Shown one piece after another: positions 10,629 through 15,827 of a stretch of DNA of 64,000 nucleotides. The DNA is from a virus (lineage: Duplodnaviria > Heunggongvirae > Uroviricota > Caudoviricetes). A program made the position numbers and the translations under genes. Numbering within the stretch: position 1 is the first letter of the stretch; every line of letters starts with the position of its first letter. The notes under the pieces were generated by a model, which worked only from the letters and a program-made list of their open reading frames with translations, was not told where the DNA came from and ran no database searches. The stretch lies in the IMG/VR virus record IMGVR_UViG_2740892219_000010, positions 15,486 to 79,485 of that record; one strand, written 5' to 3'.

Positions 10629-11234
10629 ATGCCATCGGATGATGATTTTAACAGCCGTTTCAAACAGGAAGTTGCACGCCGACTGAAGGATTCCCTCAAC
10701 CTACACCGCCAGTTAGCAGAAGAGGTTGAGCCGGAGGACGATGAAACTCCGGTTCAGTCTCCTGACGAAGCTTCACCTCAGCCAAAGGTTTCGCACGCCC
10801 CCAAAAAAACGGCTGTCCGTATTCGCGGAATAGCCAGAAAACGAGCTGCCGAAGCTCGCAAAATGGCTGTAGCTGCATCTAGCAAAAGAATTCCAACTGT
10901 TACACCCTCTCAACAAGTCACCCGTACTGAGAGTAAAATCTTGACCGAGTTCACATCTGTGAAACAGGTGAATTCACTTGATACCGAGCATGAGCGCAAA
11001 CAACTCAACAACAAAGATTTTGAAGCAGAAATCGCTCTAAAAAAACGATACGGGAAATGGTTCCTGATTATCCTTGCTTTCCAACTTCTGATAATGAATG
11101 GTGTATTTATTGCCGACGGCGCAGGTAAGCTGGAATTTGAGGATTTAACACTACAGTTGTACATGGGCGGTACTTTGACAGAGGTATTCGGCCTCGTGCT
11201 GGTCGTGACAAAATACCTTTTTAAACGCAAGTAA
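10629..11234 (+). CDS. Hypothetical membrane protein, charged N-terminus and two C-terminal TM helices
   Basis: 201 aa, 10 nt downstream of the ImmA-like gene; its last ~22 codons are duplicated at 15760-15827. Confidence 0.5.
   Translation: MPSDDDFNSRFKQEVARRLKDSLNLHRQLAEEVEPEDDETPVQSPDEASPQPKVSHAPKKTAVRIRGIARKRAAEARKMAVAASSKRIPTVTPSQQVTRTESKILTEFTSVKQVNSLDTEHERKQLNNKDFEAEIALKKRYGKWFLIILAFQLLIMNGVFIADGAGKLEFEDLTLQLYMGGTLTEVFGLVLVVTKYLFKRK
11163..11230 (+). repeat. Direct repeat DR1 (68 bp), left boundary of cassette island
   Basis: atgggcggtactttgacagaggtattcgg...aaacgcaa recurs at 15760-15827 with 3-4 mismatches. Confidence 0.85.
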
Positions 11235-11483
11235 CTCTCTCAGTCCAACAGTCTTTCGAAGGCCTTGATCAAAGGGCCTTGATAAATTAGCAGTGCGTTG
11301 AAAACAGATAGTTATTCCCATCAGTTCCAACGTAATACACATCAAAAAAATCACCATTCTTTTGCTCTAACGTCAACACCTACTCTTAAAAAAATAATTC
11401 TCCAAGAATGAGAAAGTTATTGTGTGTATTAGATAAGATATGAGCTGACACATCTATGGCGTGGAGCCAAATTTAATATGACA

Positions 11484-11507
11484 GTCCGCTCTGTGCCAGG
11501 AGCGGAC
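11484..11507 (+). repeat. Hairpin repeat copy A (partial: 3-prime half only)
   Basis: gtccgctctgtgccaggagcggac; GTCCGCT/AGCGGAC inverted repeat around loop TGTGCCAGG, shared with copies B-D. Confidence 0.8.
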
Positions 11508-11871
11508 GTTGTAAAGTTTATTTGGAGAATAATGGTTAGAAGAACTATGTAGATCATAGCCCTCTAAAGTCAGTAGTTTTACACCATATAAATGGTCATT
11601 TAGAGATAGTACACCACCTACAAAAAACGAGATAAAGCGTGCAAGCGGCATGAAGATACATAAAATACTCCATTCTGCACTTGATGTTAGGATGAATACT
11701 GACACTCGCTTTGTAAAGATAAAGATGATCTTGAGGATGATTAGTTTATTAATTATCTCCAATGTTTGTTATTTTGTGATGATAAAGATTCTCTGGATTA
11801 ATAGGATGGTAATTCAATTAAAAGAGACCTTATAGAAGGCCTCTTTTAAGTTATGAGAGCTGATTTTATAT

Positions 11872-12249
11872 TCAATAGAGTATTCTCATCGAAGAAATAA
11901 CCTCATAAAATGTAAAGACAGCCAGCAAAAAAATACAGATAAAGATAAGGGAAATAGCACACTTAACTAAGGACTGAATCCCCCGAGGTGTTCCCCATGG
12001 TTTAGACATTTGGGTTATAACCCAAATAAATAAGGCCATAAAACAGCAAACACCAGCCAATCCGAGCAGAGATATTATGACAACTCCAAATAGATTTCCA
12101 ACATCTAGTTTATCTGTTTTTGCAACTAGGGTTAACAAACCAGCAATAATAGTTGCTATCGATATTCCCGCAATGGTTGTGAGATCAGCGATAACAGCCA
12201 GTTTTTCTTTAGTATTTCCTTGAGTAAAAACCTCTAAAATTGATTTCAT
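11872..12249 (-). CDS. Small multi-pass membrane protein
   Basis: 125 aa, about four hydrophobic helices, RBS aggtgg; flanked by hairpin repeats A and B. Confidence 0.5.
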   Translation of the reverse strand: MKSILEVFTQGNTKEKLAVIADLTTIAGISIATIIAGLLTLVAKTDKLDVGNLFGVVIISLLGLAGVCCFMALFIWVITQMSKPWGTPRGIQSLVKCAISLIFICIFLLAVFTFYEVISSMRILY

Positions 12250-12364
12250 GGAAAATAACCACCTACTATCGATTATATTCAGGAACTTTTTATCATAACG
12301 ATATCAGATAGATAAGGATATTGTAATATTTTGGATGATTTAAACTTACTTTTGTAACTCTAAT

Positions 12365-12430
12365 GTCCACTTTTCGCTCACAGCGGACCTTTAGCTCAGT
12401 TACCTCGTCCGCTTTGTGCCAGGAGCGGCC
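12365..12430 (+). repeat. Hairpin repeat copy B (~65 bp)
   Basis: gtccac..cgctcacagcggacc..tagctcag..gtccgctttgtgccaggagcggcc; same family as C and D. Confidence 0.8.
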
Positions 12431-12691
12431 GCTAACCTGATTGACGGGAAATCATATTAAGTCGGCATAAAAAATTAGAATATCTTTAGTGACTATTACT
12501 AATGTGTGTGTATAACTTATGCCTAATTTATCGCTCCGGCTGAGGGAATCTTGCCTCCGCTGTCACTTTTAGGTATGTTAACAACTATTTTTACAGTGGT
12601 TCCGAGTTATGCTATCTAACAGATTACTTGAACCGAGTCCGTTTATCAGTATGGCGTTTTATATGCTCAGAGTCCATCCAAGGAGTGACTT

Positions 12692-13168
12692 TTGAAATTT
12701 GAACAAATCTATAAAAATATTACTGGCCTTAGCTGTCCCATATTCGGGATTCAGTGGAATGCTCCAATAATAGAAACTGACGAAGCGAAGAAGTTCGTCA
12801 TTTTTCTTGAGGACAAGCGCGTTCTTTTCAATCCTGTCGACATGGAGGGTGCTAGTCATTGCACTTCGAGTGTTATCAACATTAGATCTGAATTGACTAA
12901 AGTCCTACAAGGTTTGCCGAGCGATTCACATTTAGCAAAACAATTAAGGAAAATGAGAAAAGCATGCCAAGAATTCTGTGACAGCGTTGGCTCCCCTCAC
13001 TTTATCCAACTTGATCATCCTGTTCAAATATCCATACTTGAGCGAGCCCTTTTTAAACTGCGACAAAAGTGTGGTAACTCTCTGGCAGAAATAGCGGTTA
13101 CCTATGGTCTTGATGTTGATGACGGATTGGCCAGTATTATCCCTTTTAATAATCCCAGTAACATATAG
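12692..13168 (+). CDS. Hypothetical protein
   Basis: 158 aa; probable TTG start 6 nt after RBS aaggag; flanked by repeats B and C. Confidence 0.45.
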   Translation: MKFEQIYKNITGLSCPIFGIQWNAPIIETDEAKKFVIFLEDKRVLFNPVDMEGASHCTSSVINIRSELTKVLQGLPSDSHLAKQLRKMRKACQEFCDSVGSPHFIQLDHPVQISILERALFKLRQKCGNSLAEIAVTYGLDVDDGLASIIPFNNPSNI

Positions 13169-14204: not shown

Positions 14205-14488
14205 ATATCCTCAATATTTAACCATACAGGGTAGCGTGTTTTAACCGCGGGGAAGTCGGGGTGGTGACACCCTGGCCTTACCCCAATTCCAGAGTATTTG
14301 TTTATCATACCATTGAAACTATTTAATTTTATCGAAAATTTTGTCAGAGCGTGACTGAAAAGTCTTCAGCACGTCAAGCAGATCGTCGCCGTTCAATTAG
14401 CACTGAACTTTTTCTTAGTGGGGGGCTGTGCAGTTGCGAAGTTATGCCCCAGTTCCTCACTACATTCTAATTAAGCCGGCCAACTAAA

Positions 14489-14550
14489 TGTCCGCTCCTC
14501 GCTCACAGCGGGTCTTCAGTTGTTCGTCCACTCTGTGCCAGGAGCGGACA
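14489..14550 (+). repeat. Hairpin repeat copy D (~62 bp)
   Basis: gtccgctcctcgctcacagcgggtcttcag..cgtccactctgtgccaggagcggaca. Confidence 0.8.
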
Positions 14551-14640
14551 TTGATTATTCCTCACTGTAAAAATCTTAATGCTAACTAGTGGGAACTATA
14601 AGTTGTCAATTGACATAATTGTGTATATTTTGCGATTTAA

Positions 14641-15468
14641 ATGTTAAATTTTAGGTGTCGTTATATGGATGTTAATGAATTTCCACCGGGAGTAATCGAG
14701 CATCTTGGCTGGTATGTCTACCGCCTGATTGACCCGAGAGATGGTAGTACGTTCTACGTAGGGAAAGGGAAAGGTAATCGTGTCTTTGCCCATATGCGCG
14801 GTGAGGTTGCTGCAGTGGATGATGATGAGTTACTGAGTAACAAACTCAAACAACTTCGGGAGATCAGATTAGCTGGTCTTGAAGTTATCCATGTTATACA
14901 TCGGCACGGTATAGCTGAAGAAAAGACGGCTTACGAAGTTGAAGCAGCACTCATAGACGCCTATCCCGGCTTGACTAACATCATGAACGGTGCTGGCAGT
15001 AACGAGTTCGGTGCTGCACACATCAAAGAACTAATCGCTACGTACCAACCTGAAACAATTACGTTCCAACATAAAACCCTAATGATATCGGTTAACAGGA
15101 GCTCAAAGGATATTGACCTCTATGATGCTGTACGTTTTAGCTGGCGTGTCAGCCTTGAACGCGCTCGTAAGGCAGAGGTCATACTGGCGACAGTAAGAGG
15201 AATTGTGAGGGGTGTATATATCGCAGATGAGTGGCTCAAGTCTACCCGTGAGAATTTTCCAGAGATACCATCATGGGATGCGGATGATGAATTTGAAGCT
15301 ACGCAAAGTTCCCGCTTTGGGTTCCGGGGTAGGGCTGCACCTCCTGAGATTACACAGCTTTATTTAGGTAAGAAGATCCCTGATGATCTCAGAAAAAAAG
15401 GTGCTATGTCTCCTGTGAGATATTCTCCCGGATTTGATTTCGGAATGGAACTGGATTTTAGATCGTAG
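14641..15468 (+). CDS. GIY-YIG nuclease-family protein (homing-endonuclease-like)
   Basis: N-terminal [29 protein letters not shown] fits the GIY..YVG..R..H signature; likely true start ATG 14665 (MDVNEF). Confidence 0.6.
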
Positions 15469-15696
15469 CCAATATATGGCAGTAATGAATATTTCGGGGA
15501 TCGTGTTTGCTGCGGTCATGGTTACCATTAGCAGAATAAAACTTGTGAAGGGACGTATCAAACTAAGGATGCTATGTGCGGTAAAGTTTCAATGCAGGGA
15601 ACAGATGCTGAAGTCAAGAAAATGGTCGATTGCCAGACGCAAATGACCCTTTCAAGAATCGCTTTCCTCAGAAACCAATAACTGAAGTTTCCTTCA

Positions 15697-15728
15697 AGCT
15701 GGCGCCAGGTGTTAACCTGGTGCCAGCT
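15697..15728. other. Near-perfect 14-bp-stem hairpin next to DR2
   Basis: agctggcgccaggtg-ttaa-cctggtgccagct; no T-tract, so not a classical terminator. Confidence 0.5.
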
Positions 15729-15759
15729 TAGTCATCAAGTGCATATTTAACTGTTTTAT

Positions 15760-15827
15760 ATGGGCGGTACTTTGACAGAGGTATTCGGTCTCGTGCTGGT
15801 CGTGGTCAAATACCTTTTTAAACGCAA
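15760..15827 (+). repeat. Direct repeat DR2 (68 bp), right boundary; orphan 3-prime gene fragment
   Basis: Copy of the 3-prime end of gene 10629-11234 (would encode ..YMGGTLTEVFGLVLVVVKYLFKRK) with no upstream ORF. Confidence 0.85.

Follow-up and report, generated by a model that had tools for sequence, protein, structure and literature searches.

A prophage array of gene cassettes bounded by two types of inverted sites of the P2 Z/fun kind, with a small tyrosine recombinase as candidate enzyme

Introduction

In phage P2, the inverted repeats at Z/fun allow the site-specific exchange of fun, as summarized in a review (PMC8987985) that cites Nilsson 2004, and the fun locus represents a second defence hotspot of this phage (Vassallo et al. 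2022, PMC9519451). Here we describe an array of four gene cassettes that is built with the same sites at a different place, namely in a stretch of 64,000 nucleotides from a virus of the Caudoviricetes (IMG/VR record IMGVR_UViG_2740892219_000010, positions 15,486 to 79,485), which is called the window throughout. The window consists of two tandem prophages, and the array forms part of an island in the first of these. The repeat family had already been reported from the P2 fun locus, together with its general interpretation. The P2 slot is located between genes G and FI, whereas the window array resides in the immunity region of another prophage and has four cassettes, composite junctions between them and no terminal site of the type that is named A below.

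Several other systems resemble the array in parts of their design. The pdif modules of Acinetobacter, as outlined in PMC9771954 citing Blackwell & Hall 2017, are gene modules between inversely oriented core sites; according to this outline they form mosaic arrays on plasmids, carry adaptive cargo and move by a mechanism that is not fully resolved. Integrons share with the present array the short single-gene cassettes, the imperfect palindromes of ~60 bp, a tyrosine recombinase, a plausible circular intermediate and defence genes, which a preprint reports as integron cargo (bioRxiv 10.1101/2024.07.02.601686). In the R64 shufflon (Rci, sfx), multiple inverted sites with the core GTGCCAA split a region into short segments. 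Engineered recombinase-mediated cassette exchange with heterospecific lox or FRT sites relies on incompatible inverted sites and on two like-with-like crossovers, with neither excision nor inversion. REPIN-RAYT systems consist of palindromic doublets between genes, with an enzyme gene flanked by the same repeats; the RAYTs are HUH/Y1 transposases and the REPINs are present in high copy. In T4-type phages, PeSL stem-loop linkers flank shuffled accessory open reading frames (ORFs) in hyperplastic regions, with an early promoter and homologous recombination.

Results

A search of the window for the pattern GTCCGCT-N10-AGCGGAC with up to two mismatches returned seven matches, all on the plus strand and between 11484 and 14549, where 0.17 would be expected by chance and none of 100 shuffled sequences reached seven. 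Each site measures 24 bp and is composed of 7-bp inverted arms, GTCCGCT and AGCGGAC, around a 10-bp centre. Two types could be distinguished by their centres, ..GTGCCA.. in type B and ..TCGCTCA.. in type A; the reverse complement of the A loop equals the B loop at 7 of 10 positions, which makes A an inverted, non-identical copy of B. A search for A and B sites in shuffled sequence gave no matches. The sites are grouped as one solitary site and three doublets (Table 1), and the first member of every doublet contains a CGCT-cac-AGCG mini-hairpin. Four ORFs lie between the sites in the orientations −, +, −, +, and the units between the repeats are genes of 0.9–1.2 kb. An earlier reading of this DNA, made from the letters and their translations (hereafter the sequence-only reading), had described just such a hairpin element with its internal hairpin, in one partial and three complete copies between four single-gene units of alternating orientation, and all of this was borne out, with the sites at the positions given there.

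The order of the elements is fixed: B, cassette, A-18 nt-B, cassette, A. At every cassette the sequence of A roughly corresponds to the reverse complement of B, the modules being bounded by inversely oriented sites, and the order of B, cassette and A-spacer-B was likewise seen in P2, phage 899, P22H4, IMG/VR contigs, E. coli chromosomes and plasmids. All four units of the window open with B and units 1–3 close with A; unit 4 has no terminal A site, and none was found at the right end of cassette 4 even when seven mismatches were allowed. The A-to-B spacer is 18 nt long in 25 of the 29 junctions surveyed. The segment made up of half-site, spacer and half-site recurs unchanged between different cassette pairs and therefore behaves as a unit. 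An A-like hairpin, GTCTGCT CCTCGCTACAA TGCGGAC followed by acttcag, is also present at 2185–2209 within the terminase ORF (990–2954). It has two mismatches and an 11-nt loop, its flanking 'cttcag' motif is similar as well, and it is probably a chance match.

In P2, too, the Z/fun genes lie between these sites. After tail gene G, P2 carries CTGACA-GTCCGCTCTGTGCCAAGAGCAGAC, then Z/fun (two ORFs), then GTCCGCTCCTCGCTCAAAGCAGAC-TGTCAG, and then gene FI; its two sites (locus L004, 906 and 2504) have both centres in common with the window sites and deviate from them at 1–3 of 24 nt. The window segment 11425–11518 is 77% identical to P2 847–940, and the homology of the leader with P2-like prophages begins at 11439 in KSC207 and at 11426 in OZ040555. 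Three of the four window cassettes were found in the P2 Z/fun slot of other strains, at 94–98% identity. The cassette 1 unit (11439–12388) occurs alone in the G/FI slot of the P2-like prophages of KSC207 and strain 317, cassettes 1 and 2 (11426–13293) occur together in this slot of OZ040555 with the identical junction between them, and the cassette 3 unit (13306–14509) occurs alone in the slot of Peduovirus P22H4 and E. coli 23CRST038 (96–97% identity). Phage 899 carries two cassettes linked by A, an 18-nt spacer and B. The two loci thus have in common the sites, part of the cargo and the reading as site-specific exchange. The window array itself does not lie between G and FI, but between ORF 10629–11234 and the antirepressor gene ant instead.

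Comparison of 43 distinct A sites with one another, and likewise of 56 distinct B sites, showed that the centres are the most conserved part (GTGCCA in B and TCGCTCA in A, at least 90% per position), with the arms at 80–98%. Arm variants mostly break the pairing and are uncompensated, as exemplified by position 3 of A, which is a C.A combination in 15 of 43 sites. This pattern of conserved centres and uncompensated arms fits duplex core sites of a recombinase with an overlap region. Indeed, a B site written as 9-6-9, GTCCGCTCT-GTGCCA-GGAGCGGAC, has the geometry of tyrosine-recombinase core sites, and the natural recombinants resolve to its centre. The idea that the hairpin is a selected structure was considered and rejected, as there is no compensatory covariation and the fold z-scores are uneven (−0.8 to −5.3). 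Of the 'structured linker' in the sequence-only reading it can therefore be retained that the sites are able to fold; judging from the alignment, the hairpin structure is probably incidental.

The positions of the crossovers could be read from cassettes that occur in more than one context. For any given cassette the cassette-side arm is constant, while the outer arm and its flank alternate between the P2 backbone (AGCAGAC-tgtcag) and the junction module (AGCGGAC-cttcagctcag). The A site of cassette 1 always opens with GTCCACT-TTT-CGCTCA and continues either as A-AGCAGAC-tgtcag, the P2 backbone, or as C-AGCGGAC-ctttagctcag, the junction. Conversely, the B site of cassette 3 always ends with GTGCCAAA-AGCGGAC-atgtcaaa, and opens with ctgaca-GTCCGCT-CT in the P2 slot and with ggtaactt-GTCCGCT-TC in the window. 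The P2 fun cassette occurs with four different outer halves. In these natural recombinants the inner halves are constant and the outer halves switch, which places the crossover inside the 10-bp centre. The A and B centres differ at two core positions (GAGCGA versus GTGCCA on the same strand), which should prevent recombination between the two site types. Together these comparisons indicate that the cassettes move as units that extend from the right half of B to the left half of A, while the outer halves stay with the recipient. The suggestion that the cassettes have been shuffled at a conserved linker was thereby supported, since single cassettes recur elsewhere and their homology ends inside the sites.

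The element flanks different cargo at further places, including P2-like prophages, a Qin-like prophage hotspot and plasmids. In the Qin-like hotspot, all homology breaks in 2137 E. coli records fall at sites, among them the degenerate sites A' and B' that are described below, and the alternative contents across strains include PD-T7-1, AbiH and an anti-phage dGTPase. E. coli F070 (L007, 3700–9400) shows this arrangement in a Qin-like prophage beside a DUF977 gene, which represents a third type of hotspot with the same sites. On plasmids of Enterobacter, Citrobacter and Klebsiella, an SDR-oxidoreductase module starts in the B loop and an aldo/keto-reductase module ends just past the left arm of A. 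The Enterobacter cloacae plasmid CP035636 (L008, 5003–5068) has an A-18 nt-B junction between aldo/keto reductase and SDR oxidoreductase modules, and the junction was found on 543 plasmids overall, of IncF type and from Enterobacter, Klebsiella, Citrobacter, Pantoea and others. The junction element is present in 1482 of 5426 E. coli genomes (27%), at 1 place per genome in the median and at 5 at most, and it is confined to mobile-element hotspots. A random chromosomal scatter of the REP/BIME type was thus not what we observed.

The arrays of E. coli Nissle and F070 contain a gene of ~200 codons that is annotated as 'site-specific integrase'. E. coli CFT073 and S88 carry the recombinase as well; the CFT073/Nissle protein of 200 aa is encoded at L006 2339–2941. 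Its product matches the catalytic domain PF00589 only, with weak matches to Xer-type and FimB/E-type invertase models that are far below the cut-offs, and homologues down to 59% identity all retain the residues R51, K79, H148, R151, H174 and Y183. The gene belongs to a conserved 708-bp block with a degenerate A site (A') ~40 nt before the ATG and a degenerate B site (B') right after the stop codon; from these block ends it follows that the recombinase gene takes the exact place of the 18-nt spacer. A' and B' are real module boundaries, as a PD-T7-1 cassette alone ends at A' and a recombinase block alone spans A' to B'. Copies in IMG/VR with at least 83% identity have a B site 1–3 kb upstream and an A site 1.7–3.9 kb downstream, in one fixed orientation. 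Genomes of Hafnia, Enterobacter and Pseudocitrobacter show the same arrangement around the recombinase gene, and a Brenneria locus that is cut just upstream of the gene retains the downstream A. In strain 317, the recombinase gene is located in the P2 G/FI slot beside window cassette 1.

The recombinase block was detected in 904 of the 5426 E. coli genomes. Distant homologues with ~60% identity, from Pseudomonas, Xanthomonadales, Burkholderiales and others, have inverted repeats on both sides, whose arms (NNCCGCT ... AGCGGNN) are related and whose centres differ. The family occupies at least 600 places in species-representative genomes across the Proteobacteria, and it comprises at least 7988 protein clusters from Gamma- and Betaproteobacteria, all of which bear generic names.

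As for the cargo of the window array, the ORF of cassette 4 opens at 14641 and its match to the anti-phage family PD-T4-3 starts at the ATG at 14665. The protein aligns over residues 1–255 of 267 with positions 1–254 of 256 of the PADLOC profile PDLC04031 (E=1.5e-137), and is thus full-length on this profile; it also matches Pfam LEM-3_GIY-YIG (E=7e-13). Cassettes 1–3 have no assigned function and reside in a slot that is known for exclusion and defence genes. A 14-bp inverted repeat at 11818–11849 (TTAAAAGAGACCTT / AAGGCCTCTTTTAA), directly 3′ of the cassette 1 gene, is probably the gene's own terminator, moving with the cassette. The cassette 4 homology to a copy in APEC O18 extends from 14534, inside the B4 loop, to 15473. 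In APEC O18 (L093, ~4995–5015, at a prophage end beside ssrA) the PD-T4-3 gene is located behind a decayed right half of B (TGTGCCAGAAACAGAGA), and the DNA just upstream resembles a tRNA-type 3′ end fragment; the sequence of this site suggests an old cassette insertion with eroded sites.

The cargo of sister arrays includes HEC-08, PD-T7-1, AbiH and an anti-phage dGTPase. The idea that only defence genes are carried was rejected: the plasmid modules encode an SDR oxidoreductase and an aldo/keto reductase, and only some of the genes next to distant homologues of the recombinase relate to defence. These neighbours include a NACHT protein, an AbiJ-like protein and a HEC-01A ATPase, and also an MBL-fold protein, an amidohydrolase and regulators.

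The island that contains the array is bounded by direct repeats (DR1 and DR2). The protein of the target gene 10629–11234 matches phrog_5346 (E=2e-140), a phrog of unknown function. The sequence-only reading had placed 68-bp direct repeats at the two ends of the island, the left copy being the 3′ end of this gene and the right copy an orphan. The repeats are indeed present with these properties; their length is 81 nt and they are 90% identical. They do bound the island, as a separate and older layer that is unrelated to the hairpin sites: ~450 complete E. coli genomes hold the locus with the same DR1 and DR2 variants and other cargo, and these variants are also present in strain FCI23. The island sits within the 3′ end of the target gene and re-supplies a replacement end. 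In GPEC172, and in this one genome, an empty arrangement was found, with the gene body running into a DR2-type end followed by the ant flank. The direct repeats may reflect either an old insertion that brought a replacement 3′ end (DR1) or a deletion of the island by DR1 x DR2. A 33-nt segment of DR1 (11185–11217) is 100% identical to a feature that carries the annotation 'CRISPR' in E. coli 23CRST027 (NZ_AP045789.1, 3326140–3326172), and by this match the latter looks like a CRISPR spacer against the prophage gene.

In ~450 related E. coli prophages, an intact LprI-family (lysozyme inhibitor) gene of 924 bp occupies the place where the window has a remnant. Window 15560–15900 is 98.5% identical to FCI23 5886–6225, in which the LprI coding sequence spans 5084–6007. 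In comparison with relatives of the FCI23 type, the window array replaces the stretch between the centre of B1, with homology up to 11507, and 15560 inside LprI; only the left boundary of the array thus coincides with a site. The filler between cassette 4 and the LprI remnant had no match in any of the loci compared. ST131-type strains carry at this locus a B site, an unknown gene, a degenerate A-B and the intact LprI gene.

To the right of the island, 16696–16893 on the minus strand holds a C4 antisense RNA (74 bits), isrK (80 bits) and the c4-a1b1 target directly upstream of the antirepressor gene, which is a P1/P7-type antisense immunity module adjoining the island. An Rfam scan of 9–18 kb (E up to 1) returned only these three families by ant and no family for the hairpin sites. 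The integrase genes at 26982–28028 (+) and 28320–29321 (−) are 300 bp apart and mark the junction of the prophages. Prophage 2, from 28320, is P2-like, with a P2-type replication gene (33346–36168) and portal, terminase and capsid genes, and it contains no A or B sites at up to seven mismatches.

Table 1. Positions of the sites, cassettes, direct repeats and neighbouring genes in the window
Feature	Position	Strand	Description
Terminase gene, prophage 1	990-2954		prophage 1 landmark
ImmA/IrrE gene	10131-10619		upstream of the island target gene
Island target gene	10629-11234	+	201 aa; directly downstream of the ImmA/IrrE gene; C-terminal hydrophobic segment (residues 142-183)
DR1	11153-11233	+	81 nt, 3′ end of ORF 10629-11234; left direct repeat
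Leader before first site	11439-11483	+	homologous to DNA after tail-fibre assembly gene G in P2-like phages
B1, solitary B site	11484-11507	+	GTCCGCT CTGTGCCAGG AGCGGAC; pattern match
Cassette 1 gene	11872-12249	-	125 aa, three hydrophobic segments; phrog_4155 (E=5e-79)
Junction 1	12365-12430	+	A1 12365-12388, 18-nt spacer, B2 12407-12430
Cassette 2 gene	12692-13168	+	158 aa, DUF6650; Pfam PF20355 (E=7e-16); phrog_29952 (E=1e-110)
Junction 2	13264-13329	+	A2 13264-13287, 18-nt spacer, B3 13306-13329
Cassette 3 gene	13449-14204	-	251 aa, N-terminal membrane segment and long helical region; phrog_36054 (E=7e-172)
Junction 3	14490-14549	+	A3 14490-14513, 12-nt spacer (length outlier), B4 14526-14549
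Cassette 4 gene	14665-15468	+	GIY-YIG nuclease, PD-T4-3 anti-phage family
Filler	15474-15559		86 nt, between cassette 4 and LprI remnant
LprI-family gene remnant	15560-15681	+	last 122 nt only
Stem-loop	15696-15729		perfect 14-bp stem, after LprI remnant; conserved in relatives
DR2	15750-15830	+	orphan copy of the gene 3′ end; right direct repeat
ORF6N antirepressor gene ant	15856-16692	-	right neighbour of the island
DnaB gene, prophage 1	18542-19957		prophage 1 landmark
RecE-like exonuclease gene, prophage 1	23603-25822		prophage 1 landmark
Integrase gene, prophage 1	26982-28028	+	prophage 1 landmark
Type B sites (starts)	11484, 12407, 13306, 14526	+	loop consensus CTGTGCCAGG
Type A sites (starts)	12365, 13264, 14490	+	loop consensus CCTCGCTCAC

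Discussion

We consider it fairly probable that the window array is of the P2 Z/fun kind and that its cassettes are swapped or inserted by conservative recombination of B with B and of A with A, the small recombinase acting in trans. According to this model, cassettes would be gained, lost and swapped by conservative site-specific exchange within the centres, like with like. This could happen along two routes. In the first, a double exchange between two hotspots would proceed via a cointegrate, which corresponds to the geometry of recombinase-mediated cassette exchange. In the second, a circle consisting of a cassette and A-spacer-B would be excised by two direct B sites and re-integrated at any B, and this re-integration would generate the composite A-spacer-B junctions. 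The enzyme would be the ~200-aa, catalytic-domain-only tyrosine recombinase that is encoded in the junction position of other arrays. Its link to the sites is one of sequence, and we infer from it that the recombinase most likely acts on the A and B sites.

Several observations weigh against this model. The small recombinase is absent from the 64-kb window, where the best tblastn match was 37% over 48 aa (28386–28526) and falls within the integrase gene of prophage 2; the window array would therefore be non-autonomous and depend on a recombinase supplied in trans. Next to the recombinase gene, the right arm of A' and the left arm of B' are degenerate, and A' and B' may consequently be poor substrates. 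Furthermore, the array ends in a truncated LprI gene, with cassette 4 lacking a right A site. As this end is site-less and inside LprI, at least one boundary must have been made by another route. Lastly, one conservative crossover does not explain how a first B...A pair arises from a single palindromic site, of the kind exemplified in FCI23 by GACAGTCCGCT-CTGTGCCATA-AGCGGACTGTC.

Conceivably, the sites could primarily be insulators or terminators, or elements for RNA stability or processing, while the shuffling would be left to homologous recombination by RecA, Red or RecET. The sites are conserved and foldable, some reaching DNA hairpin z-scores of −3.4 to −5.3, prophage 1 encodes a RecE-like exonuclease (23603–25822), and the array boundary at 15560 is clearly not site-specific. 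However, the island contains no intrinsic-terminator signatures where 3.4 would be expected and no T-runs, the type of site tracks the position in the array rather than the orientation of the neighbouring genes, the arms vary without compensatory change, and the fold of junction 1 is weakly supported (z = −0.8). A promoter scan of the island returned promoter-like sites at background level. RecA needs roughly 20–30 bp of identity, and the strictly conserved stretch of 6–7 bp is therefore too short for efficient homologous exchange; yet the breakpoints resolve there, between polymorphic arms. With a tyrosine recombinase embedded in the same site grammar, we regard this explanation as unlikely. 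The cassettes might also be invertible segments, with a recombinase of the size of FimB/FimE that flips defence genes on and off in the manner of a shufflon or of phase variation. Inverted sites do flank every cassette, the gene orientations alternate (−, +, −, +), and the recombinase weakly matches a model for tyrosine-type DNA invertases (E=8e-6). The 7-bp core of the R64 shufflon sfx sites (PMC4176322) is identical to the B centre GTGCCA(A/G), as seen at window 13315–13321 (GTGCCAA), and the asymmetry of A' and B', with one good arm each, recalls the sfx sites as well (PMC11852207). The conserved sfx arm TCCGGTACGTGG, on the other hand, is unmatched in the B sites, and the shared core, which deserves further attention, may reflect a common cleavage preference or coincidence. 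Inversion is rendered quite improbable by the constant orientation of the cassettes relative to B and then A (seen in four loci for cassette 1 and in three for cassette 3), and by the comparison of 2137 E. coli records with a 5.7-kb array, where coverage was 100% in one piece in 181 genomes and then dropped directly to 34%, with no class that would represent an inverted cassette. Moreover, the difference between the A and B centres at two core positions should block A x B.

Two further explanations concern the nature of the 66-bp A-spacer-B unit. It could be a selfish element resembling a miniature inverted-repeat transposable element (MITE) or a REPIN, with A'-recombinase-B' as its autonomous parent and the cassettes as the DNA between insertions. 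Its form would fit, as A is approximately the reverse complement of B, giving terminal inverted repeats and a long hairpin (junction 3, z = −5.3), the spacer length is fixed, the recombinase lies between the same ends, and solo junctions occur on plasmids between ordinary metabolic genes. Against this, an E. coli genome contains few copies (median 1, at most 5 places), single cassettes in P2 have a half-junction on either side, B to the left and A to the right, with no complete unit, the homology between loci is interrupted within the sites and not where the 66-bp unit ends, and no target-site duplication is visible at the junctions, which leaves this idea a slim chance. Alternatively, the junctions could be attC sites of an integron-type array, recombined as folded single strands by IntI. 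The mostly single-gene, promoter-poor units between imperfect palindromes of ~65 bp would agree with this, as would the defence genes, which match known integron cargo. However, both attC end motifs (RYYYAAC ... GTTRRRY) were found in none of 29 junctions and one motif in only 1 of 29, the sequence is conserved at 80–98% per position while pairing is not maintained, the cassettes occur in both orientations, and the window holds neither IntI nor attI, the linked recombinase being a protein of ~200 aa with catalytic-domain matches only. An integron of this type we deem extremely unlikely. On balance, like-with-like exchange at A and B by a small recombinase is the reading that we favour.

Taken as an exchange system of this kind, the array differs from each of the described systems. 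Adjacent pdif modules share one site, whereas here they are joined by two sites and an 18-nt spacer; pdif modules depend on the host XerCD, whereas a dedicated small recombinase is the candidate here, and the present elements occur in phages too. The window-type sites are also unlike dif, with a best ungapped match of 9/24 to the E. coli dif sequence. Unlike in integrons, two inverted site types flank each cassette and the recombinase sits inside the array. In the shufflon the segments are exon-like pilV ends, while here whole genes are exchanged between replicons, and no Rci model was among the NCBIfam matches of the recombinase, which were to Xer-type and invertase models. Engineered cassette exchange is a laboratory design based on Cre or Flp, of which the present system would, judging by its sequence, be a natural counterpart. 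In contrast to REPIN-RAYT systems, a recombinase of the phage-integrase family is found here, with 1–5 copies per genome. The array does not fall under the definition of CRISPR either, since genes of 0.9–1.2 kb lie between repeats of two inverted types. The sequence-only reading had considered the element unlike CRISPR, attC arrays and REP/ERIC repeats; with the attC motifs absent and the copy number low this distinction holds, but the element is not unprecedented, as the same sites flank P2 Z/fun. A full-text search, in which Nilsson 2004 was covered via a summary, returned no description of the heterospecific logic of A and B, of the junction module or of the candidate recombinase, and apart from the citation of that 2004 paper no account of a comparable recombinase or cassette system.

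More tentatively, we propose that the array may belong to a cassette-exchange system that is uncharacterised and separate from both integrons and Xer, in which widespread recombinases of ~200 aa move cassettes, often with anti-phage genes, among phages, plasmids and chromosomes via two heterospecific inverted sites, with the recombinase riding in the junction and the centres diverging with the enzyme.

The anti-phage genes of E. coli cluster in a few prophage slots, and the route by which they enter and leave these slots is mostly unexplained. At the locus described here the boundaries are nucleotide-exact. The same cassettes turn up in P2-like phages, in a Qin-like and an unrelated prophage and in chromosomal islands, and on plasmids these sites delimit modules; with the small recombinase, a testable enzyme candidate emerges. 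If the proposed system is real, any ORF between a B and an A site would become a candidate in the search for new defence genes, and the compact heterospecific site pair with its 200-aa recombinase might serve engineering. It would also represent a second integron-like route by which defence and adaptive genes spread in the Enterobacterales and beyond.

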